A stretch of 63,965 nucleotides of DNA, counting the filler, from Jimgerdemannia flammicorona (lineage: Eukaryota), in NCBI GenBank assembly GCA_003990765.1. It is 2 parts of 2 records of this genome, joined end to end, with 100 filler letters (N's around TTAATTAATTAA, not from the genome) between each part and the next. Parts side by side here need not be neighbours in the genome. Positions count along the whole stretch, not along the records: positions 1 to 31,969 come from RBNJ01000369.1; 1 more part is not named here. One strand, written 5' to 3'. Of the stretch, positions 1,462 through 59,616 are shown piece after piece; the first letter of the stretch is position 1; every line of letters starts with the position of its first letter. A program made the position numbers and the translations under genes. The notes beneath the pieces are model-generated. The model did not search any database. It had not been told where the DNA came from and was given only the letters and a program-made list of their open reading frames with translations.

Positions 1462-2761
1462 GCCGATGATAACGACTACATCTGGCTAATGGACTTCGGC
1501 ACAACACAGCATATGACGCCACACCGCGAATGGTTCAGCATATACAGGGAGTTCAAGGAACCGATCCCTATCGAACTGGGTGGTAACAACATTATATACG
1601 CCGAAGGGCAAGGAAACGTCAACATGGAACTCTGTGGGAACGTAGCCAATACGTCCATCACGCTATACGACGTCCTCTACGCTCCTGAACTGAAAAAGTA
1701 CCTCTTCTCTATGAGGCAAACGATTATGGCGCGCGGAAACAAGCAAATACGCTTACATTCTAAAGGCGCGACGATATACAACGGTCGAATGCGATTTATG
1801 ACGGCATCGAAACGAGGTAACCTTTACACGATCAACGGTGTACCCGTCCACCGACACGCCGTCCGCCAGCACACTATACGCCAGCACGCGAAAACGATAA
1901 CTACGTCGACCCCGAATGACATCCGTGTCTGGGCTAATTCGACAACTACGCCAAGCGACATCTACATCTGGTACGAACGACTTGGACGTATCCAGCAACC
2001 ACCACCGCATTTAGGAGCCAATTCGGGAGAACCGACGAAAAATGCTCCAGCTGGAAACGTCAGTTCGACATCTACGAAAGCACGGGAGACGACGTCAACG
2101 TCAAGTACACAACCTAGTACATCACCGAAAACGCGGCAACGAGCACCGCAACAAGCACCGCAGGCAGCGCCAGCAGCGCCAACTAAGCAATCTACGGCAA
2201 CTAAAGTCGACGAAGATGTCGACGATTTTTTCACAGCCGAAAGGGCAACAGCCGCCGAAAGAGCAACCGCCGAAAGGGCAACAATCGCTGCCGATGAGTT
2301 CTACATCCCAGCCAGCGCAAGTGCAGCAACCGGCGTCAACCGCATCCTCACCGCCATCCACATCTCCAGCGGTAAAGCAAAATTATTTTCAACCGCTATC
2401 CGAGCCTAGGATAACCGAGATTAAAGATGGCGAAGCCTCCGACGACGAGGAATTATCCCCGAAAGAGCAGGAACCGCCGAAGACACCCCGCCAAGAGCAC
2501 GTGAATCCCTCCAACGACAACAAGGAGTGGATAAGGATATGGGCGAATCTCTCAAAGGGAACGGCGCTTGAGAATGAGAATGGGTATATCAAAGGAACGC
2601 CGGACTATACGATCAACGGATTAAGCGGGAGCAGTATTCTTGTATCTGGCTCCTGCAACACCGATTGGGCCGGCGACATCTACGGCGGCGACCTCTACGA
2701 TGGTTATGACGAGTCTGAAGACGGGTCTGAATACTACGACGAGGACGTGGGCCTTTTTTGA
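1462..2761 (+). pseudogene. Truncated copia pol remnant (protease, gag-pre-integrase, RT end / RNase H start); integrase core and most of RT deleted
   Basis: WLMDFGTTQHMTPHREWF resembles copia protease W.lDSGas.HM. LYDVLYAPELKKYLFS is typical of copia pol. IWYERLGRI resembles pre-integrase WHxRLGH. YIKGT...GSCNTDWAGD resembles YLKGT...GYSDADWAGD and lies in a second frame. Confidence 0.85.
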
Positions 2762-3148
2762 ACATTGCGGGTAACACTACGCCAGCTTTTGGCGAAATCT
2801 AACATTGTTACGCCGATCTTTACGCGGGTGATCACGAGACATTTTTCAGGCTGTTAAAAGCCTCGTACCGCACATACATCTACGTTGGTTACATCCTTCA
2901 TCTACGAGTGGATTACGTGGATTACATACATTGCATTCTTCACTTATGGGTGGATATTTCGGGTATTTCAGAACACTTTTCGACCCTAGATGTAATTCTG
3001 GGTTACATGCAGTTCTAGTTTTTGCATGCGTTATGCATTGCTTTTTATTCTAGTTTGCATTTTATTGCAGGTTGCAATTCCTTTTTTTGGGTACATGTTG
3101 TATTCTTTTTTTTATTTGTTTTGACGTACATATCTCCTTGAGCGGGAG

Positions 3149-3239
3149 TGTTGGGATTACAAGTCGTTATGTATCCACAGCGCCTAAAAGCGCGTTACTT
3201 TGTATTATGAATAAATTGCTTCTTCTGTTCGTCACAACA
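3149..3239 (+). repeat. 3' LTR (91 bp) of copia element, preceded by PPT at 3140-3148
   Basis: TGTTGGGATTACAAGTC...GTCACAACA followed by TSD AGCAT. Confidence 0.92.
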
Positions 3240-5077
3240 AGCATCCTTGGTATACTCCTTGTCTTTCTTAAACAGGCTAGTAACAATATCACTGATTGTT
3301 GTGAGGTCATCCTTCTGAGTACTTTGGGAGAATACATCAGCTACTTTATTTTTAGTACTAGAAATGTGCTTGATTTTGACATCAAAGGATACAAGAATCT
3401 ATATTCATTGTACTTGTCTTTCTGTAAGAATTGAGTATATCTAAATATATATATTGAAGAGCTTGATGGTCTGTTCATAAGGTGAATTTCTTGTTGAAGA
3501 GAAAATATCTCCATATCTATAGAGATTGGATGATAGCAAGGAGTTCCTTGTCTTATATCATATAGTTCTTCTCATATTTATTAATTTTCTGAGATAGATA
3601 TGTGACTGGGTATTTATATTAAATTAGGATAGCTTTGATGCTAATATTTGAAATATCAGTAGTAACTACAAAGGGTTCTATAGAGTCTGGACTGATCAAG
3701 ATTGATGTGTCAGTCAGCATTCTCTTGAGAGTATTTATAACTATAGTATATTCTTCGAATCTTTGAATAAATATTCTATAGTATTTAGCTAATCTATTGA
3801 ATTCTTATAAAGACTTGAGAGTTTTCAGTATTGGCCAATTACAGATTTCTTCAGTTTTCTTTAGATCAATAGTAATACTATTTACTGAAATGATATATCT
3901 AAAGTATTTGATTTTCTTCTTAAAAAAATGATATTTTATCTTTCTTACTGAGAGCTTATTTTTATATAGTATATCAAAAACTATCTATTGTAATGGTGCT
4001 CCCAGAATGATGACATTAGTACAGGAGACAGTCTTTCCTTGTAAGCCACCAGATCAGAGTACAAGAAGATCATATGACATATGAGATGAGCAATGATGAC
4101 CAACTGTGAGTCATTGTGACCACAGTATAAGCATCCTGAGGAATATAAAAGAAGGATCAAGTAACTGCAGTAGCAGCAATCAACAAGACCCACTAATCTC
4201 AAAATAGCTCAAAGACTTACCACAAATGAAATACCTGCTGCTTGCCAAACCTCAAGATCAAGGAACTACCAAGGCATCTCAGTTGAAGAAAGGATGTTCC
4301 AAGACATCAGAAGAGCCATGAGGACCCACTCAAGAAGGACTCCTAGTGTCAACCTAGGTACTGGTGACCCTTATCACTATATTCTCTACTGCTGTGAAAT
4401 GGAAACAAGAATCACTATTGCTACTGAATGCCTCCAAATGTGGCAGGAATATGAAATAGGAAATCTCCTCTGCTGGGAGTTTTCACAGACCAGCACTCAA
4501 GAGCTATAAGATATCACTTCTATAGATATATGCAAAACAAAAGTAGCTAAGAAGATTCATCAGATCTTCAGGTATGCACCATGGTTGATCCCCAACTTGG
4601 AGTATGTTAGAGTCTCAGATTTCAGAGACCTATCATCCTGCTATATCAATGCACTAGAAGTAAGGGTGGCTACAGATGCCTAGTCCACTATTACCCTCAA
4701 TAGTGATGAAGTAGAAGACTTCTAGCACCCCATCCTCCAGGACAACCCAGACCAATTCCTACAAGGATTGATCTCAGTATTCCAAGGCCCAAGTATCTAG
4801 GTTAGACCTCTCCAAGACCCCACATTTGTTCTCTATTTTGTGGAAGAGAACCTCATAGACTAGAGAGTCCCAGATCTCCTTCTCACTGCTGAATGTGATG
4901 ATGTCATCAGCGATGACATCATCCATGCAATATATGTAAAACATATAACAAAGTATGCAAAGTATGTGAAATGTATGATAATGACAAATTCACAGACCTC
5001 ATCTCCTTCAAAGGCATCCTGACCTCTGATGATGAAGCCCCCATAGTTCTGAACATTCTGCTCTAAGTCCCTTAGTT

Positions 5078-9719: not shown

Positions 9720-12220
9720 AGACTCTATACTACTATTATGATATAGATATAGAGGACACCAAACCAATCTATCAAAAAGTAAGACCAATACTACCAGTCT
9801 AATCAAGTAGATGGAAGAAGTCAGTATTATTAAAGAAGCCAGCAGCCCTTGGGCTTCACCAGTTGTACTAGCCTCAAAAAAAGAAAGCAAGCCAGGAGAA
9901 TTCACCCTAAGGCTCTGCACTAATTACAGAAAGCTCAACCTGGTTACCAAGAAGAATTACCAGCTACTATCTCTCATTAGTAATATCCTTGTAATCTTAA
10001 GAGACAAAGTACAGCACTATAGTATCTTGGACATCTATATATTCAGGATTCTATCAAATCAGTCTCACAGAAGTAACAAGTGAGAAGTCAGCCTTCATTA
10101 CTCCAATATTTACCTATAAATATCATTCAGAATAACAATATATCAATAAGCTTTAGTGAATGATGAATAAAATCTTCCACTATAATATAAGAAGATAAAT
10201 AATGATCTATATAAATGATTATATCATTTATAGCAAGATAGCTAAAGAATATCTGTAGTATATCTAGCAGATAATAGAGAAACTAAGATAGTATGGCTTA
10301 TACATTAAGCTAAAGAAATATAAATTTGCAGAAATCAAAATCTCCTACCTTGGCTATATCATCAACTGAGATGGAATACATATAGACCCTCTTAAGATTC
10401 AGGTAGTAGTAGCATACCCAAGGCCCACTACTGTCACTGAAGCCCAAGCCTTCATAGAACTTATCTCATACTACTGCAGATTTATCAAAGGATTCTCTAA
10501 TATTGCTGGCTCAATCTATAAACTTAACAAGAAGAATGTCAAGTTTTAATAGACTGGTAGATAACAGAAAGTATTGAGTGAGCTTAAGATCAGGCTGATC
10601 CAAGCACCTATCTCCAGAAGATCAGATTGGACTCAGGAATTTATCCTGTAGACAGATGCAAGTGTACAAAGACTAAGAGCAGTCTTGGTTCAGAGGAAAG
10701 ACAAAGTAGAGTATATTGTTACATATCTTAGTTAAGAAACTCAAGAAGCTGAAAAAGAGTATGAATCCTATAAGTTAGAATATCTTGCAGTCATCTAGAC
10801 TATATTGAAATTTCATTACTACTATACTGAAAGATACTTCACTATCCAGATAGATCATTTAGCTCTTACCTAATAACTGACCACTGGACAACCTAAAGAA
10901 ATCTATGCCAGATGGATTATGAAGTTGCAAGCCTGTGATGTAACCATTATGCACTACTCCAGAAGAACTAATACCAATATAGATACCCTTTCACAGATAT
11001 CCTAAAGGATCTCCAACCAGCAAATCAACTATGAATAAGGAACTCTACTATAGAATTATCACTTATCTAGGATAGTGAAAGATACTCCAACATCTGGAAG
11101 AATGGATATAAATGATTATCAATAGAATATGGAAGCAATTTGAGACTGATGGAAAAATACTAAAAAAGAGAAAGCTACTAGTTATACCCAAATATAAGAA
11201 GGAGTAAGTAATGAAATAAATATACTTTGGCTATCTAGAAGGAATAAATATATATGATAAAGTATGAAAAACAATATAGTGGCCAGGAATAGAGAAAGAT
11301 ATTAGATAATTTGTCAATATCTATGACAAATATCAGAAACAGAAACAAGACCAACAAAATCAAAATTCTGAATCAGTACACATAGAACCAATATTTTTTG
11401 CATATATTATAATGGATGTAATTAACTCTCTACTCTTAACTTTGACTGGCAACCAATATATTATTATTATTATAGACCTTTTCATAAAATAGATAGAGAC
11501 AGAACTTCTCAAAAAAGCCAATGTATAGTCAATTGCTAATTTCTTTTACAAAGAAATCATCTGTTGATTTAAGACCTCATTGCAAGTAACTACAGATAGA
11601 GAAACAGAATTTGTGAATCAGTTCTTTAAGGTTCTCTATAAGTAAAAGATATAGTATATTTAAACTACAGCCTATTATCCTCAGGAAAATAAATAAGCAG
11701 AAAGGATCAACAAGACTCTCAAGAATATCATCACCAAGATCTGTAATAATTATGAAAACTGAAATTACTATCTGCCAATAATATTATCTACTCTCTGGGA
11801 TATCTGATTACAAAGTACCTATTTTATCTCTCAAGAGATACTGTTTAGAGAAGAAAGTTCTCAAGAAATCTTATTATCTAATAGAGATACTATATAGAAA
11901 TGTGTGGATATAGAGATATAGAAACTATACCAAATTAGGAAGAAGACTGAGGATTATACATATAATCAAGGCTCAGACACTATAACAGAATAATGCAGAA
12001 AAGATTTACAAGTCTCTGGAGATTATCAAAATAGGAGACAAAGTTCTGATATATTGGAATATAATAGAAGCTTTATGGTCATAAAAGCTAGAGCCTAAAT
12101 GAGAAGGACCTTACTTAGTGCAAACTATAAAAGAAACTACCTTTTGGTTACAAAAACTCTCAGATACAATCATACTCACTACTATTTACTAAAACTGACT
12201 CAAGAAGTATTATAGCTAAT
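9720..12220 (+). pseudogene. Degenerate Ty3/gypsy pol: reverse transcriptase, RNase H, integrase
   Basis: DIEDTKPIYQK; SSPWASPVVLASKK...LRLCTNYRKLN (RT); TDASVQRLRAVLVQ (RNase H); TDRETEFVN and TAYYPQ...ERINKTLK (integrase); GPYLV near 12,105. The RT-RH-IN order is gypsy-type; many stops. Confidence 0.92.
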
Positions 12221-15060
12221 TAACAAAGTACTGCCACAGCTCTTAAGATCACTAGTGCTATATAATAAGCCATAGAAAGATAATGGTATACTACCAAACC
12301 ACCAATTATAAAAGAATCCTTTGACAGCATCCAGAGTATAGTCCAGACATACTTGTTATAAATCTCATATTTCAAAATCTATCAGAACTAGACTGAGTTT
12401 TAAGTTAGAATAACTACTAAACTTATAGCCAGAGATGGAAAAAAAAGACTGAATCAGAGAGTATCAGCTCTCTTATACTCAGATCATAATTATCAAACAA
12501 GTTAACAAGTTATTCAAAGTGATGAGCCAGCTCTAGCCCATCTCTAAGAAGTAGTTCCAAAAGACTTTAGATATATCAAGAGATATTATTAAGAGAATAT
12601 AATGATACAAATTATACAGTACAAGGAGATACAAATCATAGAAGCTTAATAGTTCAAGTGAATAGAATATTTCAGAGACAAATCACTTATTTAGGAAGAA
12701 GTGATGATAGTTGATCTAAATTAGTAATATAAATTAGAGAAATAGACATTTGATCATAGTATCTGAATCTAATCTCCAAATATAACATAGTCTTATAAAT
12801 AGCAGTTATATTTCACAAATATAGAAACTTAATAAATATTAAAGTATTTATAAATATCAAAGATTTTACAAATGTTAAGGATTAATACTTATAAAGAATG
12901 ACTTACAGAAAACATAGTCATAACTTAGATATTTTATAGCTAGCAAACTTATATAAATATCTTCAATATCTAGAGTAAATAAACCTCAGATCAAAATAGT
13001 TTAAAGTAAAGAGAAAGCAAGAGAACTAGTAAGCCTATGAGCAGATATACTTCAAACTCATTTACCTCTATATTCTGAGAACTCTGTAGAGCCAAAGAAG
13101 ATCAAGTTTTTAAGATATAGAAATCTGACATACTTATATAGTTACATATCTGCTATGTTATACTATATTAGTTATAATAGAGACTATTTCTACTATTATC
13201 AGAATATTTATAATTAGTATATCTATTAAGTTATTGAGCTTATTTTAGCTTATTTTAGCTTATTTTTATTTATAGTATATATTAGAAGTATATTGTTATA
13301 TGTAGCTACTTAGTACTAATAGAGCTCATAATCTTTATTATAAATAGAGTAAAAAGAACAATAGAGAGCATTTGTTTATTTATCTAAATAGTGGGAATTT
13401 ATATGCTAAAATCAGTTATATGTATAATATAGATAATATAATTATATAAACTATAAATTATTGAGATATAAAATAATAAGAATTTTGACAGTAAATAAGA
13501 TAAAAATAAATTAAAAATCTTTATTTAACTTAGTTAATTATTATTATTATTAAAATAAATATTAAAATTAATTTTTTATAAATAACTTATAAACTAATTT
13601 TACTTATAAAAGTTAGCTTTTTAAAATATTTTAATAAGAATAAAATATATTATTTTAATTAGTTATTCTAAAATAGTATTATAATATTTATAACTTAAAT
13701 AAATATCTATAAAAATACTATATTTTTATATTAAGCTACTAATTTGAAAAACATTATAGTTATTTAATAATATTGATATTTATCTATATTTTAACTTCTA
13801 TATCATTAAATTTTATAAAACTAATTATTATGATATATTTTAAAAAGTTTGTTTATAACTCAAATAATATTATTATATTAAGATATTACAACAGCACGTG
13901 ACGTCATCCATCAATCGCAATACACAAAATACATTACTTTGGAATATCTTCTGTTCGGTCTTATGAATCCAATGATTCACTACAGATAGTATATATTTAT
14001 ATATCTTTAATTGTTGTAAATATTAAATTAATAAGCCTGGTATTGTGTTAGTTAATATTCATTTATTCATCATAACTAGCCAATCTTCCTGTTCCAAATA
14101 TGTATAAATTGTAATGTATGTATATATTGATTTTTACTTTCGTAACGAAATTTCAGATTGCTCGTGAAGCAACACCTTCGAGTCCATCCTCATGTCGATT
14201 GGTAAGCTCATCCACTTATACGACAGCTCATTCATTTGTACTAATCCTGGCCCTGCACAATACCTCTTCGACTAAACTAGAATTACACAATAATTTCCTA
14301 TATTGTGTGAACCATCATCAAGCTTGCTTCAATGCTCGAACAAAGAAACTTTGAATATTCATGTAAGAAATTCTGGACGAGCACTGCTGTTTTTATGAAC
14401 AGGGCTTGTTGTGGAATTACTGGAGTACGGATAAGTTTTACGCGTTGCAATTGATGACGTAAATTGATGACATAAATTGATGACGTCTATACTTATAACG
14501 CCTACATAAATATAAGCCATAAATCTTTAATTAATGGATTTATTGGATGGAAGGTTCGGTGGGTTCCAATTCATGTAGATCGAAAATCTATGTTGCACAA
14601 CAAATTTTCTGATCCAGTGTTCGTGTATATATATAACGAAACAAAACGAAAAAATAATTACGGCAACAAGCACACGAACTCATTGTACAGTTATTACTTC
14701 TGTAGCGACATCGAGGACATTGCACTTCTTTCGCCCTATGGGAATTTGTAATCACAATTTCCCCTTAGTTAATGCTGCATTCCATGGAGATATGTAGGCG
14801 CCCTCGCTTGTCTACGGCGGAAATGGCCGAGGCTTGCCTGTTTTACGGGAACCCTTCTAAAAACGATTATCAACACGACTTAAATGTAAAATTGGCAACA
14901 CCCGAAATTACATTAGTAAGGTGAGCTTGGAGTCCACCAATCAAGCTTGGTGGATCGTCCGTCGATCAATCGGAAGGATATCACTTCGACCGCCATAAAC
15001 CTGTCTCTATAAGCTTATCGCCACTTATTACTCCTGACGTCAAAGTTACGATTCCCGACC

Positions 15061-16042: not shown

Positions 16043-17648
16043 CGTTTCTACATATTTTTGTTTGATCTATGAAAATCGTTGTCTCTCGTACGAGTGCACG
16101 CGGATATGTACCGTTTTGTAACATAAATTTTGTCTTAGACCGATTTATTAAAAAGGCGAATATTTAAACGTATATATAATTCTTTGAAGTTGCACAAGAA
16201 TATATTACGATGCATTTAATATATATATATAATATGAACCACGTTGAATTAGGAATCAATGAAAGTTCCACACTAACTGTATTGGGTTTTTGGAGTCCCG
16301 ACGTTCGCCTGCAAGGAATCGGAAGTCTTATTGTGGCTCCGATGACAACGATGGTTGCAAGGGGTCCTTGTTTCTATTCTCCGGTGTCTAAATCCGGACG
16401 TGCCATTATGACGTACGCGAAGATCCGATGATGCCATCCTTCTCAGGATGGCTCCATTATAATTTTATTTAGCAATATGCATATAAACGTCTTCACTCCT
16501 TGAAACAGGTTCATAGTTTCCGGCGCTTTATAGTTGTGATTGGAATAATTGTTATATGCAATGAATTACACCACAGATATCCTTGGTCTTTGGTTCCAAA
16601 TTATCTCGGACGCCATCGCTCTCACTTACCACTTGTGATAGATAGGTACTTAATCGAGGGCTACAAATCTGCTTTTCCAACGCAGCTCAAAGAACTATCG
16701 TGGGCAAGGCCCGTTTATCCTTCGACTTTTGATACAATCCAATGCTTGCCAAATCCATCACTCATATTCATTTTGCATGCTGAATCGGTTCAGCTGCTAT
16801 GACGACGGAGTTTATGCACTGAAATTTTGGCAATGGTGTGGCAGAGGTGATTCATTTGTGTAAGGTTATCAAAAGAGTATCCAAAATAAACCAAGTTCAT
16901 GCATTTGCCGATTGTAATCGTGAGTCCAGTGGGCCAGTTTGATCGGAAGCGCAAGGCGACCCTTACTAGTTTTATCGTGGCACAAAATTATAGCCCTCTA
17001 CTACGACGAACCCAGTCTTACGCAACGGACGGTATGTGCGGACCCCCCCCCCCAACCTTTACGTGTGGGTCCTGGAGTAAGACCATTGTTAATGTGCTGG
17101 CGTGGTCTTCGGAAATTCTCCCCGCGCTCGTTGACAACACGTATATATATATCCGTCGTTCGAGGAGTGGATAGAGGATGAGGCCTGATTCAATAGCCTG
17201 GAGTGATACAACGCTTGTCGCACACTCACCACCCAGCCACAGTCTGAACAAAGATGAACTTCCTTCCCTCTTAGTCTTAGATGGTTTCGCTTTTCGGTCA
17301 TAGGTTGTACTACATCCATCTTTCAGCATCGCCAAGTTCACTAAGCCACCTCTTGCGTACGCCACACATTGCGGACGAGTTTCTTCAGTATGTCAAAAAT
17401 GAGTATATATTGTAATTTGTAACGATGTGTTTGACGATCGTTTCGAAATCCTTTCGACTCAGCTGTAACACGTCTGGACGGAATTGAGATTATTAATGTA
17501 TGCGAATTTTCATGAAATCTGATTAGTTAACGAAATTTCCGTTAAAAGCCCCTTCGCAATCAACGGGCCCACACCCTTTATATATGTATTGGCTTGTAAC
17601 AAACAGATATAAACTATATACTGAAAATAAATATATAATGAGGAGTCA

Positions 17649-20600
17649 TCAAGCGTCAATGTTGTCTGGGGCATCGAAAAATTTCTCGTCGTTGTCGTCG
17701 TCGTCTTCGTCGCTCGTTTCGCTTGCCGCGTTACTCTCTTTGGTGCTGACTTGTATGGCGGGCGCGAAGTCGGCTTCATCAAAGAAATCCTCCGAAGAAT
17801 CTGGTTTGAACATGGCCATGATTAACGATTTCAAAGGAACAACAGCGAGTGGCAAAATAGCTGTGGAGAAACGATTCGCACCTTGATTGGAATTCGCGTC
17901 CTGCATACTCAGGTGGAGTGCCTCTTCGAGCTGGCGCCTCTCCTCCGGATCCATTGTCTCGTCGGCTTCATTTTGCTGGGCCTGGGGCGGCGGCGGTGCT
18001 TGCCGTTTTTTCGTCAGGAGTAGAAACGCTTCGAGGGTGTGCCCGACTAGCAGGTCTGGGGGTAACACGGCGATGATGGCTTCATCGCGCGAAACGAGTT
18101 CGGCGTAATCATCTATGGACGCATCGGCAGGTATAGTGCATCCGCTGTCGCGGAGATGCCTGAACACGAAGCGCTTGAGCGCGGTGGCGACAGTATCAGT
18201 CAAGCTCGCCGCGTGACAGGCCGCGGTGAGATCGCGTCCAACATGGTCCTTTAGTGGCAGCATATAACTTGATGGCACAAACTCGTTGGGTGTGAGCGCC
18301 AACAATAGATCAAACACCATGTCCTCAATTACCTCGTACGCGGCGACGACGTGCTTGAGCCGCACCTCGCCAAGACAGGTCCGCGCAAACACCTCGTCGG
18401 TCAGCACCGAGAGGGACGAGCGCATACCACCTAGGGCGCAGTGTTGGTTGAGCCAGCCGCGGCAGTAATCGGCCAAAAACATCTCACCATCGCCACCCTG
18501 TGTTCGTTCGAGGTAGCAAAGCACCATCTGCAAGTCCGATAACAAGTCCGGTGCGATATCGCGAATGTGTTCATCACCGCAGATCTGCGCCGCGCGACCC
18601 GCCTCCAGTGGCTCCTGCGGCACGAGTGCGGCAATCTCATCAGCGATGCGCATGTTGTGCCTAAACATCTCGCCCGCGTACGGGAACCCCTCCATCTCGG
18701 GCTGGATGTGAGCCTTGCCCAGAATGAGCAGACGTGCAAGGCGCCACTCGAGCTCGGCCAGGTCAAATTCAATGTTCTGGGCGCCGCCATAATCGAGCCC
18801 TAGCTGGTAGAACGTGAGCAGTTGCGAGTCATAGTCGTTATCCGTTACATAAACTACTTGTGATTCTTGCAGGTCGTGGAAGGTGACAGACGGCCAGGCA
18901 AGAGCGCGCCCATGGTGAACCTCTTCCCCGTTGGTGGCGGTCGCAAAGACATCGGTGGGCTGCAGGAAGAGAAGCGACGGACATTTGTCGCGCTCTATCC
19001 CGTCAATATCGTCGAGGAACGCGTTCTGCAGACGGGCAAGCTGCTCGAGCGCAGCACACAGGTAAACAGCTTCATCCGCGGTCTCGTAGAGTGCAAAGAT
19101 GACCGCGCGTGTCGCATCCATTGTCGGCATCTCGTGCTTTAGCTCTTGGCACTGGTAGTGCGTGACGGACGAGCGGATTGCGTTCCAGGCGCGCTTGAAT
19201 TCGTCAAACAGGCGAAAAAGCCTCTCGTAGGTATGTTCATCCCTTTCTTCGCGTACACGCTCCAGTAGAGCTGCAAACGTAAGCTTCCTAGCCTGGTCAC
19301 GGTTGATACGGTGAGCGAACATTCCCAGGAGCTCGTTGGCAAACCTGGCCAGTGGCATGAGATGGATGAGCATGTCGAGGTTATCTTTGTGCTTAAAGAA
19401 GAGCTGTAGGACGGGGAACCGCCGCTGACGATCGGGGTCGCGGCAGACAAATGCACGCATCTCTCTCACAGCGTCCTCGGGAGACGCGAGCTGACTCGTG
19501 TACCTCCAAAGCCTAGCGAACGACTCTTGCCCCGCATCCATGTCATTCAGATCCAACGTTTCTTTAATCTCGTGCTCGAGCAGATGTTGGTCACGCCCCA
19601 CTCCACCAATCTCCCTCCTGTAAATCGCTAGCGTCTGATGCATGTCGGCAACCATGGGCGTCACGTGCGCGTTCATGAACTCGGTCTCCCAGTCCTCGAC
19701 CATCTTGGAAGTTGAGAGCGGCGCCACGATGTGGTCGTGATCGCGTTCCATCCGTGTGAGAACTGCATGCAACAGTAGATGCATCGTTTCATCGTTGCAA
19801 AGAAGAATCTGGCGCAACATGTCCCAGTCGTTTTCGACGTGCTCGAGGCAGTACAGCACAGGGTCCCTGTCGGTCACAGCATACGCAATTGCAGCCGGCT
19901 GGAATGCGAATATGGCGTGCACGAACAGGTGGAGCATGCGGAAGGCCGCCGTAGTCAGGGTGCGGACCGACTTGGTAGGGTCGCGTAGGGTCTCGGTCGC
20001 CTCCTGGGTGTAGCCGACAACCTCGTCGACGAGTGGCTCGTTCACTACCCTGCTGTTCCCGCTGATGTTATGTCTTTGGCCTCCAATGACGTTTTTGCAT
20101 GTTGGGCATCGACTCTCTACCCACGGCTGTTTCAAAGGTTTGAGAGAGAAACACCAAATTTTAGAGACTGTGGAAGAAACAATGAGTACATAGCAGATGT
20201 TGTGAACGACAACTATTTACCCGACCACAGTTAGTAATGACGTATGTTGTGCCACAAACGCATCGGTACTCGGTCGTATATGCACTACATGGAATATTAC
20301 TTGATCAATCTAAAGCTCAGTGACGTCAATCCAGAAGAAAATATGCATTTTATTACCCATTATCGCCAGCTGCGCGCATCGCCATAAGGACGGCAGTCCT
20401 CTCATCCAATGGACATGTTATCACAAAGTTGCGCTGCACTTCATCTGGCATGTGGATGTATCTGGCCAGGGGCGAGCATTCGGGGTTCATGGCGGCGTGG
20501 ACTACAATTGCACGCGCAACTACAGAGTGCAGAAGAAGCGCTCGGCTATTCTCGGCATCGCGCGGAATCAGCGGAGAGACACGATCAAGCACGAGCCGAT

Positions 20601-48856: not shown

Positions 48857-51800
48857 ATGCCTCTCGCCGTAACACACCAAGAGCCCGGCTGGACCAACTT
48901 GCGCGCTGATGCCACTGATTTGCTCAAGGACGCTTCGGCCCTCAAGGTCTATAGCGCCGTTCGCGAGCTCGTCGCCACCGCTGATCCCGACGTTATCGCT
49001 ATGCTGTGCGCCGCTTTTCTCTTCGCTCTCGACGGCCACAAGCTGACAAAGTTCCCCGATGAATCGCGTGTCTGGTACGTCGTGGCCGAGACCCAGTACA
49101 CCCTTGCCGTTACGGGACTAGAGGAGCCCGCGGACCCACCACCGGACATCAAGAAGAACATGGGAGGCGAGAACGCATTGCTTGAGCAGAAGGAGTTAGG
49201 CGTCACGGAGGGACCGGAAAAATATGCGGGAAAGGAAAGGGGACCTGCTGGCACAGCAAAAAATTTGCAGAACCGGCCTAATTCGAGTGCGACACCCAAA
49301 AGTAGTGGACCAGTGGCGAAGGTGATAACGAAACCCGCCAAGTACAAGCCAGGACCGAAATTATACTCGCTGAGATCGAAGGGGCCCCCGCCACCGTTAC
49401 AAGCAAGGAAGCGGAAGGCAGGGAAACAGGTGCCGAAAATATTACCAGCAGAGAAACGGCTTGCGGTCGATGATAATGGTACACGTCTTCATGTTTTATT
49501 GCGTTCTCGGTCTAGTCTTCACGTTACGGTTCTGCTTAGATGCACATTCATTTTACTATATTGAGCTTGTTTCATTTTGTCTTATGTTTCTTCATTTTCT
49601 TCGCTATCCAAATCGCATCTTCACCTCGGGCCATTCCCCACCTCACTTATACACTCTCAGTTGTTATCGAAGTCGAAATCCCTAAATTCTCCCCTTTCAA
49701 AAAAGCCCGTCTGGAAAGCCCCGCCGGACCATCGAAACCCCGAGGAATACCCCCGAAACCTATATTAACAACATTCTTGAAGCGCTCCGCGCCACAACCG
49801 ATGCGCGGTCGCGCACGGGGGTTGAGAACGCCTTCAACACCGAGATCAAAACAAGTGGTGGGACCGCCGGAAGATCGCAAAACGCCAGAACAGTCTCCGG
49901 AGAGTTTTGCAAGGTTCTACTCGCCAGGGTCGGAAAGTAAGTTAGGAATCGGAACAGAAAACGGGAATGGATATTGATCTTTTTGAAGAAACGTCGTTTA
50001 TGAATTAGGATTTTAATTCCGCTACATACAACTATCGTTTGTTCCGTACACCTTCTACCATCCCGTGATCCACAGCCAACACCAAGGCCTCCCTTTTGAA
50101 CACGCCCCAACCGTTCTTTAAAGACGCCTCATTCCCGCCAGCACCACAACCAGTGCCCCCCCCCACATTTTATAGCCGTACTCAATCGTTAATCGGTCCT
50201 TCATTTCCAGCCTTCTCGGCGATTGCCGCGGATGACGCACGGGACGCACCGATGGCGACGAACGCGACTGCTGGACATGAGCGGCCGTGGTACGAGAACA
50301 CGGCGAGTGGTGATCAGGCCCAGATTGCTGCGACGCTGAACACTCTTTTCTCATCGGTGCCGATCACAAAGGCGAGCTCGGCGTCAACATTTGTGCACGC
50401 AAGACACACCACCTCCCCACCATCACCACTCACTCCATCATCTTCGCAATCGTTTCAACTTTCTTCTCCCCCGTCCACCATCGTCGCCGAAGCCCTCGCC
50501 CGGAAAATTTCTAGCCAGGCCAAGACACTGAACCTCTTGTTTCAAGGGTACGATAAGGAGAGAGACGAGGGGCATGGAGACGGAGAGGATCGTACGTGGT
50601 CCGGATCCACCGAACGACCGACCGTGGCGAGTTCGATCACACCTGGTCAGGTCCTGGCACAAGCACAGGCTGAGAAGCAGCGACAGCAGTATCTGGCAAG
50701 CATGGCGCATGCGTCATCGGACTCGTCGCCTGCTTTGTCAACGGCGTCGGTGGGGACAGGGGCGGAGACTGGGACGGAACAGGGCACTACGACGGGTGGG
50801 TAGTGTAAACATGTATATTGCATTGGTGCGTTGATATATGGGTCTAAACTTGCAAGCACTTATTGTCATCACATGCATAGCCAAGCCGGTGGTCGCTAAG
50901 CGGTGGTCGACAGAGGAGAATGCAAGATTACAACAGGGGCTGGTATATATCGTTTGGATATGTTGGTGTTAGTGAATTTATTGCTCCCAAAGCATCCAGC
51001 ATGTAAAATCTGGATTGTTGATCTTCTCTTTCCGTGTATGGTCATTCCCTACTATCATTCGTAGGAAAAACATGGTTTCGGCAAATGGAAGGCCATCGCT
51101 GAGATTGTCGGCACTCGCAATCCCGCGCAATGTGCAAAGCACGCACACAGGCTCCAGAACCCCGACGTGTCGAGCAAAAGCCACAGCTTTGCCGAAGCCA
51201 CTGCGGGAACCAACAATCTTTTCGGCGCCGCGAACGCTTTCCCCGCCGATTCACCCACGTCTACCTCTTCTCTTCTCGATCATGCTGACACCGGCGCTGC
51301 GAGTCTCGAACGTATGTCATTGACCCATCAGCTGTTGGACTCGAACGAGCGAGACGGGCATGGCCATTTGGAGGAAGACGACGCTGATGACGTTAACGAT
51401 GATGACGATGACGAGGACGAGGGCGAGGACGAGGGCGAGGACGAGGACGAGGACGAGGACGAAGACGAGGACGAGGACGACAAGATAGCGGAAATTGTAC
51501 GGGACGCTGTGGCGCCCGCATCATCGGATGTGGCGATGGGAGCCGTGACAATGTCGAACTCTTCGCTGCATGGGATCGGGATCATGGACCACACCCAATA
51601 CTCGGTCCCCAGCATCGACCCTTCGACCATATTGGGCCAAAGCCATCACTCGCAGAGGATGGACACGTACGCGCCCACCCATGACGTGGCGTTGCAGGAA
51701 GCGTACCAGAACATGCCATTACATATATCTCACACGACGCACCAGAGCGGCAGCAGAAGCACATTGTATTCGGAGAATACGGTGACTTCCACGACTTCAG

Positions 51801-52294
51801 GCGGGCAAGGATTGCAACAAATGCCCGTGAGGCCGGTGCAGCAAGTGCAGATGACGCAAAATGGGGGTACAGTCGTGGGGTCGAATCTGGGTGTAATGAG
51901 GGGTACGGACGCGTATTATGGGAGCGGGAGTGGGTATCAACAACAGCAGCAACCAACGCACGAATTTCGTGCGGTTGCGTACATCCCCGCCACGCACCCG
52001 TCTTCGTCGTCTTCGTCTCCACACATTCAAACACACCCCATCTCATCCACAACCTCTGATTCCACGCCCTACTACTCCGTTCCGTCCATCCCCTTATCCC
52101 CAACAACAACCTTCCAATTCTCACCGCCAAACATCCACATACAACCCGGGGGTTTTTCGCAGCCATCGGAGCATGAGGTTATGTACAACGAGAACTATGT
52201 GCTTGAAATGTATCCAGATCAGAAGCAAGGTGGCAACGGGGCTGGGGATCGAGAAAATGGGTCACGCATTGGCGGAGGAAGCGGGTTGTTTTGA
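48857..52294 (+). CDS. Hypothetical multi-exon low-complexity protein (helical N-terminal domain, basic NLS-like patches, acidic tract)
   Basis: Collinear plus-strand exons (about 48,857-49,478; 49,661-49,937; 50,075-50,798; 50,881-50,941; 51,065-52,294) with GT/AG ends. RKRK and KKARL motifs, and a D/E run at 51,370-51,482. Could be two genes. Confidence 0.6.
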
Positions 52295-55895: not shown

Positions 55896-58800
55896 AGCAG
55901 CAACAGCAACAACCGTTGCAACCGACGTACTCGCCCTCGCTCTGGGGCACCCCAGCCTCCGCTGCAAACTCCGCGCCCGTCACCTCCTCCAGTCCGAACA
56001 ACACGCAAGACCTCCGCCCCCGCTTCGAGACGTTGCGGCCCCTCTCCCCGACCTCTACCACCACCGGGGCCCGTATCGCTCCACTCTTCCCCCCACCCTC
56101 CTCGTCCTACTCACCCCAGAGATCTTTCACCTCCCCGTCGACGCAACAGCACAACAACATTCTCCAACCCGTTCCTCTGCACAACAACCTGTCCACGTCT
56201 ACCGCCTCAAGTGCACCGCTCGACGACGATGTCTTCGGCTATCTGGTTGGGTCGGCGACGGGTGGCGCGGCGTGGGGAACCAACAAAATCGCCTCCAATA
56301 CGTCGTTGAATTCCATGTAACGTAGAATCGCGCTATATCATAAGTCCGAGTGCGACTTCGCTTTTCCTCGAAAGGTCTATGTGTGCTCAACACCACCCTT
56401 TCTTCCACTTGCGTTCGCGAAATCGATCAGGCGCTTTCAATCCACTGCATCCTCGGGCCCCCTCACTCCCACGCGGATTGGCGCCGTCGCCACAGCGTCC
56501 GCCTCGGTGGGAAGTCATTGGGACTTTGACCTATTGGCGGGAGGCGGGAAGGCGCCGGTACGTTGGCATGCGCAGGGTTATTTCTAGTATTTCTAATTGT
56601 TTGGATGAGAATTGAGTTGCTGCTTCCGAGAAAGAACAGACGTCATCACCAGGGTACCGGTTTGTCGATTGAATGCACCCGCGCTTCTAGAGCTCATGCC
56701 GTTTCATTGGCGCCCCCCCCCCTTTAACTTCACGTTTCGCACATGATATAGTCCGCATCCTCCACACCCTCCGCCACAGTACTAGATCCCTTCGACATGG
56801 ACATCTTTGACACCGCATCTCTGGGGGCTACCACACCGACTTTGCAACGCACGAATACCACTTCGTCTTTTAGCGACGACTTTGATAATCCTTTGGGAGT
56901 GCTGGCGGAGCCGGTCAGGCCCAAAGTATGCAGTTTAGGAGTTGCTGTCAGAATGGCGCGATTGTAATATCGTTATTTGGCATATCCATCCTCTAATATT
57001 TATATCCACTACACAGCCTGCCTCCCCCGCTGCTCCCACGCCCACCTTGACGACTTCCACCTCCACTGCCAACACCACCACCCAGCCTGATTCCACCCTC
57101 GACCACCTGATCGCCCAAATTGTAGATATGGGCTTCACCCCCGCCCAGGCGCGCACGGCCCTCGCCGCTACGCCCTCCGGACGAGACGTCGAGGCGGCGA
57201 TCGAGATCCTGATCCAAGATCGCGAGGACCTATCGGACGGCGACGACCGGCCCGCCGAACTGACACGCCGGAGTAGCGCTACCGGTAAGATCAACCGTCG
57301 CAACAGCAACAATAACAAGAATAAGTACACTGGGATCCGCGGCGCGGAACGCGAACGCCGAAGGATGATCGACGAGGACGAGGACGAGGGTGGCGTAGAC
57401 GGGTACACGACACCTGACAGCGAGGATGACGAGCACCTTGAGAGAAGGCGCAGTGGGAGGAGCCGCGTCCCCACTGAAGATCAGTTCGGCACCAAGACCG
57501 CGCTTGCCAGCGCCGTGCCGGGCACGGGAGGGTCTGTCGCGGGAGGCGGAGGAGGGGGCATGCTGGGTGATTTCGCCGCACGCAGGACCCAGTTCCTCAG
57601 GAGCCTGTCGTCGACCGTCGGCGGCGTGACAGCAGCAGCAAAGCCGCAGCAGGGTGTGCCGTCGTCGAACGCACCCGGACGGGCCGTTGATGCTCCTAAT
57701 GCCCCTACTGGCCCTGGTGGTTCGGAGGACTCGCCGCAATCGGTGGCGGCGGCGGCGGCGGCGGCGGCGGCAGAGGCGAGGCAGCAGGCGCTCAAGCAAT
57801 CCAAGGAGAAGCTCGTGGCTGGGGCGACGGAGTTGGGCGGGTTCCTCTATAAGGGGGCTAGCTCTCTAATCCGTGGAGGGAAAGAAAGGATCGAGAAAGC
57901 CATGGGCGATATGCAACCCGAGTCCGGGGAGGGGAGCGATGGGACCGGAGGGGTTGCCAGTACCGGCGGCAACCTTAGCGGGGGCGGTAGTGGGAGAAAG
58001 AAGGGGGGGATATGGGGCGGTGGGAGAGGAGGAGGAGGTGGTGGTGGTGCTGATGGATTTGACGACGAGGAAGGAGGAGGGGTCAGGGTCAGGGGCGGTT
58101 ACGAGCGATATGTGGACAGTTCGGATGACGATGATGAGGGCAGTGCACACAGACCATTCTGGAGTGATGATTTGGGGGGTGTGGAGGAAAAAGAGAAGGG
58201 AGTCAGTGCCAAAACCGGGAAGGAAAGTGTGGAGGAGGAGAAGGCGAGGCAAGCGCAAGCGCAGAGAGAGCGAGAGCAGAAGGCCAAAAAGCAGGATGTT
58301 GAATCTCCTTACGTCTCGCCCTCGAGACGGCGCAATCCCCCGCCGCCCGTGCCCTCCGCCGCAACCAAACCCTCCTTGTCGAGCTCGACGAGATCGCCGG
58401 CGCCACGGATCCCGCGTACCATCGTCCAGGCCTCGACCTCGCAGCTTTCGACTGCGAAGGCTCACCGAACTAAGGGCAACGATCTCTTCAAGCTCGGTCA
58501 GTTCGGCGACGCCGAACGTGTATATACCCTTGCCATCGACTCCCTCCCCTCGCGCCACGACAACCTCATTTTGCTGCACAATAACCGCGCCGCCGCCAGG
58601 CTTAAAAACGGTGACCACAAAGCATGTGTCGAAGATTGCTCGGTTTCACTCGACGTCATTACGCCGGATTGGGTTGCGGTCGCGGAGACCGAAGGCGGGT
58701 TCCGCGAGCAGGCCATCAAAGCCTTGCTGCGTCGCGCCACAGCATACGAGGCCTTGGAGAAGTACCGCGAGGCCAAGGGTGATTTCGAGAGCCTCATGAA

Positions 58801-59616
58801 GATTGATGGCGGCAGGAACAAGGCCGTTAACGATGGGCTCGGGAGGTGCAACAAGGCTATCCGGCTTGCCGAGTCCGGCGACGTCGACCAAAAGGTCGTA
58901 ACCCCCTCCGGGACACCCTCCCGACCGCCCGCTCTCTCCCCTTCGACGTCGACCTCGTTGAACCTGTTCGACCCGACCCCGCCCAACCCGGCCAACAACC
59001 CGTTCTCGTCGGCCTTCAACCCGTCAGCCTCCTTGTCCTCCTCCTCCATTGCCGCCGCCGTCAACCTGAACAGCCCAGCCGTCGCGCAGATCCGTGCACA
59101 GACAAGGCAGCAGGACGCCGAGGATGCCGAGCGCCTCAGGGTCAAGGATCAAGTCGACGCCAGGCATGCGGGGTGGAGGCAGGGCAAGGAGGCTAATCTT
59201 CGAGCATTGATCGCAAGTCTGGATTTGGTATTGTGGGAGGGGGCTGGGTGGAAGGGCGTCAAGATGAGCGAGTTGATTGAGCCGAGAAGGTGTAAAGTTG
59301 TTTATATGAAAGCCATCGCGAAAGTACATCCTGACAAGGTAGGGTCGGTTAGTTTACTATGAGTTTTTTTTTTTTTTTGCGGTTGGTCAGATACTGGTTC
59401 CACACGAATCATTGCCTAGCCCTTTTATTTAGCTTCAGCACGAATCATTCTGGCATTTTTTCTATACCATATTTAAAATCCCTTCCCATAACCTGACCGA
59501 CCACGGCCCTCTAGCTTCCCGCGAACACGACAGTCGAGCAGCGGTTGCTGGCCAACAGCGTTTTCAGCACGCTGAATGAGGCGTGGGAGTCGTTCAAAAT
59601 GCAGAACGGGCTGTAA
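55610..59616 (+). CDS. SWA2: Auxilin-like clathrin-uncoating factor Swa2 (DPF/NPF motifs, UBA, TPR, C-terminal J-domain)
   Basis: Starts MDDLNGLVW. UBA: IAQIVDMGFTPAQARTAL. TPRs: GNDLFKLGQFGDA...NNRAAARLK...KALLRRATAYEALEKY. J-domain: NLRALIASL...KVVYMKAIAKVHPDK|LP...FSTLNEAW. Stop at 59,614-59,616. Confidence 0.92.
55853..55912 (+). repeat. (CAG)12 plus CAA/CAG tail; coding polyQ microsatellite in the Swa2-like exon 1
   Basis: Encodes Q14-K-Q5. Confidence 0.95.

Follow-up and report, generated by a model that had tools for sequence, protein, structure and literature searches.

The closest described counterparts of the protein considered here are the animal RNF213 (mysterin) ligases, of which human and mouse chains have been solved (8S24, 6TAX, 7OIK). 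In the available excerpts of PMC11549300, coat formation by human RNF213 is said to require the activity of its own RZ finger; the means of recruitment, the delivery of RNF213 to membranes, lipid droplets and pathogen surfaces, and its amplification by its own ligase activity are described there as still unclear. Short linear motifs that address proteins to the endoplasmic reticulum (ER) are likewise described elsewhere. Conventional FFAT motifs combine an EFFDAxE core with an acidic tract, are found on lipid-transfer proteins and tethers, and bind the MSP domain of VAP or Scs2; a fungal precedent, in excerpts of PMC11116812, is the binding of Scs2 to the C-terminal FFAT of yeast Num1. For the deubiquitinase USP20, docking on VAP has been suggested to occur by way of a conserved FFAT-like motif within an unstructured loop (PMC3261905, excerpts). 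CALCOCO1, a soluble ER-phagy receptor, binds VAPA/B through an FFAT-like motif at residues 680–686, near its C-terminus, and a second region of this protein binds the UIM-docking site of ATG8; the same source cites Marshall et al. 2019 for the binding of ATG8 by sequences resembling ubiquitin-interacting motifs (UIMs; PMC7396842, excerpts). Classical UIMs are single helices, exemplified by the tandem UIMs of ataxin-3 (PDB 2KLZ) and by STAM2 (PDB 5IXF).

The window, a 63,965-nucleotide stretch of DNA from the root-associated fungus Jimgerdemannia flammicorona, carries at positions 17649–17960 of the minus strand the C-terminal end of a 4229-residue RNF213-family protein (P0002). Searched against the PDB, the full protein matched RNF213 and nothing else, all nine sequences found being RNF213, with the AAA+ core at residues 992–2425 aligned to residues 1872–3367 of human RNF213 (E 1e-112). 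Pfam placed an RZ-type zinc finger (PF20173) at residues 3385–3429 with a score above the cut-off (E 9e-14). The dynein-like AAA+ core homologous to that of RNF213, and the RZ finger followed by the RNF213 C-terminal domain, assign the fungal protein to the family and bear out a sequence-only reading of this DNA that had called it RNF213-like. The strings quoted by that reading, which left the strand unstated, all lie in the minus-strand frame 17649–20216; we refer to this last-exon part as P0001. The AAA+ core, RZ finger and C-terminal domain are collinear in the animal and fungal proteins, whereas the fungal one has about 1000 fewer residues and, in a gene model that is imperfect, yielded no RING finger in a Pfam search up to E 10 or with the C3HC4 pattern. 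Several RNF213-family paralogues occur in Endogonales and in Glomeromycotina. An Endogone paralogue possesses a near-threshold N-terminal CBM20 by Pfam, a domain reported for human RNF213 in excerpts of PMC11549300.

The last exon opens with part of the RZ finger (20052–20129, residues 30–55 of P0001), followed by the RNF213-type C-terminal domain (18012–20051). A phmmer search with P0001 alone found no match in the PDB, and a profile was therefore needed; profile A2, built from 21 homologues, matched the human and mouse RNF213 chains across its positions 16–768 (E about 5e-88), and all nine distinct sequences found were RNF213. In the solved animal structures the chain stops between 10 (human) and 20 (mouse) residues past the last aligned domain position, so that these RNF213 chains lack the tail that follows in the fungal protein, in agreement with the sequence-only reading. 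This tail begins with a Pro/Gln-rich linker (17952–18011), the sequence of which is unconserved among relatives, and continues through a UIM (17898–17951), an intron, a first FF motif and an acidic tract with a C-terminal FFAT to the stop codon (17649–17651).

The intron, which the same reading had suspected, is real and has exactly the borders that it gave. It comprises 81 nt (17801–17881) in phase 1, is bounded by GT..AG on the minus strand, stays in frame and holds no stop codon. Assembled RNA contigs from two of the four runs, X1 and X3, which belong to two studies, joined position 17800 directly to 17882. The X1 contig spans 12,684 nt, is identical to the window and lacks the intron; it begins in coding sequence farther upstream, crosses the tail and its stop codon, and enters the 3′ untranslated region (17458–17648); it stops at 17458 and continues in adapter-like letters, so that its end does not prove a true RNA end. 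X3 is a root metatranscriptome and furnished an independent contig with the same spliced structure. The intron interior (17810–17870) was covered by contigs in none of the four runs, X4 and X5 having no contig across the site; as splicing was read from assembled contigs, a minor unspliced form could escape this count. The prediction that the motifs survive with or without splicing thus holds formally, the intron being in frame and free of stops, while the spliced form was the only one seen. The GenBank model erroneously retains the intron as 27 hydrophobic residues, which are missing from the Endogone orthologue P0003. These residues of the deposited protein are intron, and the public gene model is corrected here; a membrane anchor, which we had considered for them, was rejected on the same ground.

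The UIM is centered on the core LEEALHLS (17907–17930), preceded by acidic residues. Hofmann and Falquet are reported to have defined the UIM consensus in 2001 as an acidic run followed by hydrophobic-x-x-Ala-x-x-x-Ser, and the fungal sequence fits this pattern. The Ala and Ser were invariant in all five aligned tails. When a profile of the tail UIM was searched against the PDB at E up to 10, the sole two matches were ataxin-3, through its two UIMs, and STAM2, the alignment falling on the UIM in either case, with E-values of 0.15 and 0.74 that are non-significant. With these classical motifs the fungal UIM shares the acidic run, the Ala/Ser core and the following Gln; it differs in being a single copy that falls below the Pfam thresholds and has a predicted ligand. 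Pfam UIM models (PF02809 and PF23625) matched nothing in the tail encoded by the window up to an E-value of 10, and in two of the five sequences scanned they matched at the exact position with scores (P0090, 14.8 bits; P0007, 10.9 bits) beneath the gathering cut-off of 21 bits. A single-sequence AF2 model of the relative P0090, rather than of the window's own protein, had a mean pLDDT of 50, and the helix equivalent to the UIM (residues 112–125) was its most confident element, with a block pLDDT of 79. Across 268,416 positions in the bodies of homologues the UIM pattern occurred five times, a count that is descriptive only because the pattern was written after the tails had been viewed. The UIM of the sequence-only reading agrees with the consensus and is conserved in relatives.

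Two FF-containing elements lie downstream of the intron. We scored them with the Phospho-FFAT matrix in Table EV4 of PMC7705450, adapted such that an acid is required at position 4 and only the upstream tract is considered; this differs from the conventional matrix of Slee and Levine 2019. Candidate motifs in PMC7705450 range from 0 to 3. The last element, an acidic tract with the core KFFDAPD (17664–17711; core 17664–17684) ending four residues before the C-terminus, scored 1.5, within that range and consistent with a strong conventional FFAT. Its K at position 1 is sub-optimal, where conventional FFATs have an acid; up to two sub-optimal elements are allowed in candidates in the excerpted text of PMC3261905. 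Core, tract and C-terminal, putatively disordered location otherwise resemble those of conventional FFATs, though the host is a giant E3 ligase and binding is predicted from sequence. The first element, SSEDFFDEAD (17769–17798; core DFFDEAD 17769–17789), scored 4.5, or 3.0 in an alternative register, and did not qualify, making it a weak FFAT or none at all; a change to E at position 5 eliminated targeting to the ER in yeast cells (Mikitova and Levine 2012, excerpts). Of the two FFAT-like motifs originally proposed, the last agrees with published criteria and the first is a poor FFAT in this species. The Endogone counterpart of the first element, EFFDFDT, scored 2.0. Other identities tried for it were rejected: an LIR/Atg8-interacting motif, as no [WFY]-x-x-[LIV] core is common to the tails, and an FDF-type motif, which is seen only in the Endogone orthologue.

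The last motif is well kept among relatives. The orthologue P0003 carries EFFDAED (score 0.0), and paralogues and metagenome relatives scored 0–1.0. In five of the six tails an F-[FV]-D-A core follows an upstream acidic tract, with scores of 0–1.5 and an acid at position 1 except for the K of the window; in P0090, E replaces D at position 4 (EFFEADE, score 0). The FFAT region of P0090 is coil in the same AF2 model (single-sequence, mean pLDDT 50) and sits in an acidic, low-complexity context. Within the bodies of homologues, a score of 2 or better was reached at 7 of 267,540 positions.

The two motifs also travel together. Among 167 proteins of at least 100 residues, we searched the last 150 residues for matches to the UIM pattern and for an FFAT scoring 2 or better; both were present in eight, representing six distinct tails, while the FFAT occurred alone in one and the UIM alone in none. 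The six are the window's tail, Endogone P0003, a J. flammicorona paralogue (P0007/P0159), an Endogone paralogue (P0008) and two metagenome fragments (P0090 and P0163); UIM and strong FFAT thus occupy two paralogue lineages of Jimgerdemannia and Endogone together with the two fragments, and the evidence for conservation, which the sequence-only reading had proposed to check, spans one fungal order plus these fragments. The motifs keep their register while the linkers between them diverge, and the first FF element and a mid-tail acidic-aromatic element are loosely conserved and score as poor FFATs. No other homologue examined had both motifs together; the tail was missing from the Glomeromycotina homologues examined and from a third Endogone paralogue (P0160). 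Word-based searches with the P0003 tail region returned only P0003 itself and P0002, and those with P0090 only P0090 itself and P0163. When metagenome DNA was scanned with alignment A3, 156 stretches fitted the pattern, and not one of them was confirmed to be a relative. In the strain of runs X3–X5 a 3-nt deletion at 17694, within the acidic tract, is in frame; it is the sole indel in the covered tail of this root-metatranscriptome strain, in which all three substitutions are synonymous.

A model for the tail emerges from these data, which we consider probable when taken as a whole. The stretch is an expressed, probably disordered C-terminal extension of a giant RNF213-family AAA+/RZ-finger ligase, for which sequence, transcript, splicing, family membership, motif scores and conservation were observed directly; it is made up of linker, UIM, weak FF element and strong FFAT, with ER docking and ubiquitin binding as its putative roles; that the tail was gained in the Endogonales lineage, before gene duplication, belongs to the same probable account. 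The tail is taken to be cytosolic, as is assumed from the RNF213 family. [quoted passage not shown] The UIM, in turn, would bind ubiquitin, and we propose that its own products may thereby retain or regulate the enzyme. The tail suggests that this fungal ligase may be anchored to the ER; its binding to VAP and to ubiquitin, and a role at the ER or at lipid droplets, are what we infer from the motifs.

Among the described proteins, CALCOCO1 too has, in the excerpted text of PMC7396842, a near-C-terminal FFAT-like motif for VAP and another short element that recognizes a ubiquitin-like protein; it differs in having no enzymatic domains, a degenerate FFAT-like motif (FFFSTQD) and a second element that binds ATG8. 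The fungal order, helix and then C-terminal FFAT, is that of CALCOCO1, and the UIM-like helix might by analogy engage the UIM-docking site of Atg8 instead of ubiquitin, making the ligase or its cargo a VAP-anchored autophagy or ER-phagy adaptor. We regard this as unlikely: by inspection, the six tails share no conserved LIR core ([WFY]-x-x-[LIV]), the helix resembles classical ubiquitin-binding UIMs in the profile comparison with the PDB, and the docking region of CALCOCO1 itself, as far as those excerpts of PMC7396842 go, contains no UIM-like sequence. USP20 offers a ubiquitin-system enzyme with an FFAT-like motif, but has the opposite enzymatic activity and carries the motif in a loop within the protein, not in a tail at the C-terminus, with no adjacent UIM described in the excerpts of PMC3261905. 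Comparably doubtful is a reading in which the likeness to FFATs is convergent and the acidic Phe motifs either recognize some protein besides VAP or form an autoinhibitory tail that packs against a basic surface within the ligase itself. The last 50 residues do hold 19 acidic and only two basic ones, and the loosely conserved first FF and mid-tail elements are poor FFATs, as this reading would have it; the F-[FV]-D-A core kept in five of six tails is, however, far more specific than an acidic-aromatic patch.

The same acidity raises the question of whether the matches are chance features of a low-complexity tail with no specific function, which we judge quite improbable. Disordered acidic sequence readily gives rise to short linear motifs, the Pfam UIM thresholds were missed, the strong acidity of the tails favors FFAT-like matches, and for two tails about one in a hundred composition-preserving shuffles reached the observed best FFAT score. 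Set against this are the full shuffle counts, which at 46, 0, 8, 63 and 0 of 5000 for five tails indicate more than chance, the register of the motifs in both paralogue lineages and in the two metagenome fragments amid divergent linkers, their near-exclusive co-occurrence (eight of 167 proteins, against one and none for either alone), and the exclusively synonymous substitutions and in-frame indel of the metatranscriptome strain. That the tail is an annotation artefact lying outside the mature protein is scarcely credible: the GenBank model is indeed wrong at the intron, but the X1 contig, continuous from coding sequence through tail and stop to 3′ UTR, and the independent metatranscriptome contig contradict it.

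Our literature search found no paper joining RNF213 to FFAT or VAP docking, ten of the eleven co-mentions being unrelated by title and opening lines of the abstract and mostly concerned with Chlamydia; nor, among the records listed, any that gives RNF213 a UIM of its own, nor any joining RNF213 to Mucoromycota. The VAP-anchored, ubiquitin-sensing ligase proposed here would link the RNF213 family to ER contact sites through a fungal tail. Endogonales and Glomeromycotina fungi are hosts of intracellular bacteria, and, as part of the low-probability speculation set out below, the several paralogues that they possess could be cell-autonomous immune or symbiont-control ligases at ER contact sites. 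None of the fungi that carry the tail is a culturable model organism. A natural RNF213 relative with explicit ER-docking and ubiquitin-binding motifs would offer a simple model, testable by mutation in yeast and in vitro. In its boldest form, which we advance as speculation with a small chance of being right, the finding would mean that RNF213-type ligases in an ancestor of the Endogonales gained a two-part address tag that may have turned them into VAP-anchored, ubiquitin-sensing machines on the ER; if true, the tag would be a linear-motif form of the self-amplifying recruitment displayed by human RNF213.

The minus-strand frame at 17649–20216 is open for 855 codons and constitutes the final exon of a very large gene (about 17649 to beyond 31900, minus strand); its translation (P0001) is 100% identical to the deposited 4229-residue protein BC938DRAFT_479135 of Jimgerdemannia flammicorona, Endogonales (P0002). 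By sequence similarity, the protein is assigned to the RNF213 family: a PDB search with the whole of P0002 returned RNF213 chains only (E 1e-112; residues 992–2425 against human 1872–3367), Pfam detected an RZ finger (E 9e-14), and a profile built from the C-terminal regions of 21 homologues recovered nine distinct PDB sequences, all RNF213 (E about 5e-88). The profile alignment stops at residue 5237 of 5247 in human and 4618 of 4638 in mouse; animal RNF213 therefore ends 10–20 residues past the C-terminal domain and lacks a tail of the kind described below, as the sequence-only reading had suspected. Neither Pfam, at E up to 10, nor a C3HC4 pattern detected a RING finger in P0002, and the RZ finger is the sole candidate ligase element seen. 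Several family paralogues are found in Endogonales, as well as in the Glomeromycotina genera Rhizophagus, Ambispora, Acaulospora, Racocetra, Cetraspora, Scutellospora and Dentiscutata, with homologues also in amphioxus and a green alga. A CBM20 starch-binding domain lies near threshold (22.7 bits, cut-off 23.3) in the N-terminal part, residues 71–155, of the tailed Endogone paralogue P0008, paralleling the CBM20 reported for human RNF213 in excerpts of PMC11549300; a J. flammicorona cluster member, P0158, is a CBM20 protein by its source's naming.

All strings quoted in the sequence-only reading are present in this frame. On the minus strand, the tail runs from a Pro/Gln linker (17952–18011) through the ubiquitin-interacting motif (UIM) stretch (17898–17951), a first FF motif (17769–17798) and an acidic tract with a last FF motif (17664–17711) to the stop codon (17649–17651). 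It is interrupted by an 81-nucleotide GT..AG intron of phase 1 (17801–17881, minus strand), whose split codon reads Asp after splicing. Contigs of four sequencing runs (X1, X3, X4 and X5) were placed on 17200–19000. The joint from 17800 to 17882 is present in X1, RNA by guess only, and in X3, recorded as a root metatranscriptome; no contig of X4 or X5 spans the site, and 17810–17870 is covered in none of the four. The X1 contig (12,684 nucleotides, depth 72, the longest record of its run) is identical to the window and stops at 17458, where adapter-like letters follow. In the Endogone sp. orthologue P0003, which is 74% identical, precisely those 27 hydrophobic residues that the intron would encode are missing, and the sequence then continues in register. 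The intron, at precisely the borders proposed earlier, is therefore real and removed, with the proviso that contigs could miss a minor unspliced form, and the deposited gene model is wrong at this point. The 27 residues of the public model, not in the mRNA contigs, could pass for a membrane segment.

Soluble proteins typically dock on the VAP MSP domain at the ER through a strong FFAT motif in a disordered cytosolic tail. The matrix used to score candidates was adapted from Di Mattia et al. 2020 (PMC7705450, Table EV4), with position 4 restricted to Asp/Glu and the upstream tract only, so that small departures from published scores may arise. KFFDAPD, the last motif, follows DDDNDE and scores 1.5, and the first, DFFDEAD, scores 4.5 (3.0 in a shifted register), Glu at position 5 carrying a heavy penalty; an EFFDE-D change abolished ER targeting in Mikitova and Levine 2012 (PMC3261905). 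The FFAT-like motifs first claimed for the tail are thereby reduced to one good predicted motif in this species, KFFDAPD, whereas DFFDEAD drops out. A score of 2 or better occurs at 7 of 267,540 homologue body positions, and composition-preserving shuffles matched the observed best FFAT score in 46, 0, 8, 63 and 0 of 5000 for the five distinct tails tested. Between the UIM and FFAT of P0007, P0008, P0090 and P0163, at the position of the window gene's first FF motif, lies a loosely conserved acidic-aromatic element (e.g. around DDLYS); no known motif fits all of its copies.

The UIM consensus is hydrophobic-x-x-Ala-x-x-x-Ser with acids before it, and the core of the window gene's tail has this form; its Ala and Ser, and the Gln that follows, are invariant across five aligned tails. 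Searched against the PDB at E up to 10, a profile of the five matched two of 177,635 distinct sequences, ataxin-3 (across both tandem UIMs) and STAM2 (at its UIM), at E-values of 0.15 and 0.74 that are not significant for a motif so short. In a single-sequence AlphaFold2 model of the relative P0090, poor overall (mean pLDDT 50), the best-confidence element is helix 112–125, which is the UIM. The UIM pattern, devised after the tails were seen, occurs at 5 of 268,416 homologue body positions. The proposed UIM agrees with the consensus and is conserved in relatives; Pfam yielded no UIM match on the window's own tail segment and sub-threshold matches at the exact position in two of five sequences scanned (P0090, UIM_2, 14.8 bits; P0007, UIM, 10.9 bits; cut-off 21).

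Beside the window gene, a UIM-type helix is accompanied by FFAT motifs in P0003 (EFFDAED, 0.0; EFFDFDT, 2.0), in a second paralogue lineage of J. flammicorona (P0007/P0159; EFVDAEE, 1.0; EFFDADE, 0.5) and Endogone sp. (P0008; DFVDAEE, 1.0), and in the metagenome fragments P0090 (EFFEADE, 0.0) and P0163 (DFVDAEE at the C-terminus, 1.0). Across the last 150 residues of 167 proteins of 100 residues or more, many of them fragments without a true C-terminus in which absence says little, an FFAT score of 2 or better was found in nine, the UIM pattern in eight and both in eight; the ninth FFAT-bearing protein, P0146, has FFAT only. With P0001/P0002 and P0007/P0159 each a duplicate pair, the eight amount to six distinct tails. 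Conservation holds among these six but does not extend to the full-length third Endogone paralogue P0160, to the Glomeromycotina protein ends read or scanned (Rhizophagus, Ambispora, Acaulospora, Racocetra), or to the full-length amphioxus and green-alga relatives, from which it follows that the tail was gained in or close to Endogonales, ahead of the duplication giving the two tailed lineages. In the root-metatranscriptome strain (X3–X5), the covered part of the tail shows three substitutions, all synonymous (17733, 17739, 17745), and the single tail indel is an in-frame 3-nucleotide loss inside the acidic tract (17694). The strain also carries a Thr-to-Met change in the linker at 18013. The related fragment P0119 (146 residues) breaks off in the UIM region, with unrelated residues after, and may contain an uncalled intron or be a decayed copy.

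Elsewhere in the window, an AT-rich tract spans 10001–14000 (GC 0.23–0.31 versus about 0.5 in the gene), and a plus-strand open frame at 1372–2409 with a retrotransposon Pol beta-barrel domain (PF22936, E 6e-21) is probably a transposon remnant. A plus-strand frame of 807 codons at 56939–59362 encodes a ubiquitin-binding protein with a UBA domain and TPR repeats about 40 kb off, and a Myb-like frame lies at 51065–52294.

Taken as a whole, the reading that we somewhat favor is one in which the UIM would act as a ubiquitin binder, tying the ligase to what it produces, and the FFAT would dock it on the VAP MSP domain at the ER. Human RNF213 is said, after Sugihara et al. 2019, to affect lipid-droplet homeostasis. 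Excerpts of PMC11549300 describe human RNF213 coating bacteria by 'enzymatically amplified cooperative recruitment', with RZ-finger activity required, and excerpts of PMC11116812 describe FFAT docking by fungal Scs2, including on the C-terminal FFAT of Num1. Given the FFAT–VAP docking norm and these coat and lipid-droplet roles, the placement at ER or lipid-droplet contact sites that the sequence-only reading proposed is reasonable as a prediction.

Other readings bear on the same features. The helix may bind the UIM-docking site of Atg8, which would make the ligase or its cargo a VAP-anchored autophagy adaptor like CALCOCO1 (PMC7396842). Alternatively, the acidic Phe motifs may contact some other partner, or else the ligase that carries them. 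Chance in acidic low-complexity sequence may also account for the matches. That the tail may be an artefact is contradicted by the X1 and X3 contigs, which run through it with the intron removed.

No paper tying RNF213 to FFAT or VAP docking came up in a literature search, the co-mentions listed (10 of 11) being unrelated by title and start of abstract; nor did any description of a UIM of RNF213 itself, as judged from listings, or anything on RNF213 in Mucoromycota. The UIM, the FFAT motif and the RNF213 family are all familiar individually; what is new is that the two motifs sit together on a ligase of the RNF213 type. The tail offers a hypothesis that is clear and cheap to test, but one confined to a single order of fungi that are difficult to grow, and founded on predicted motifs.
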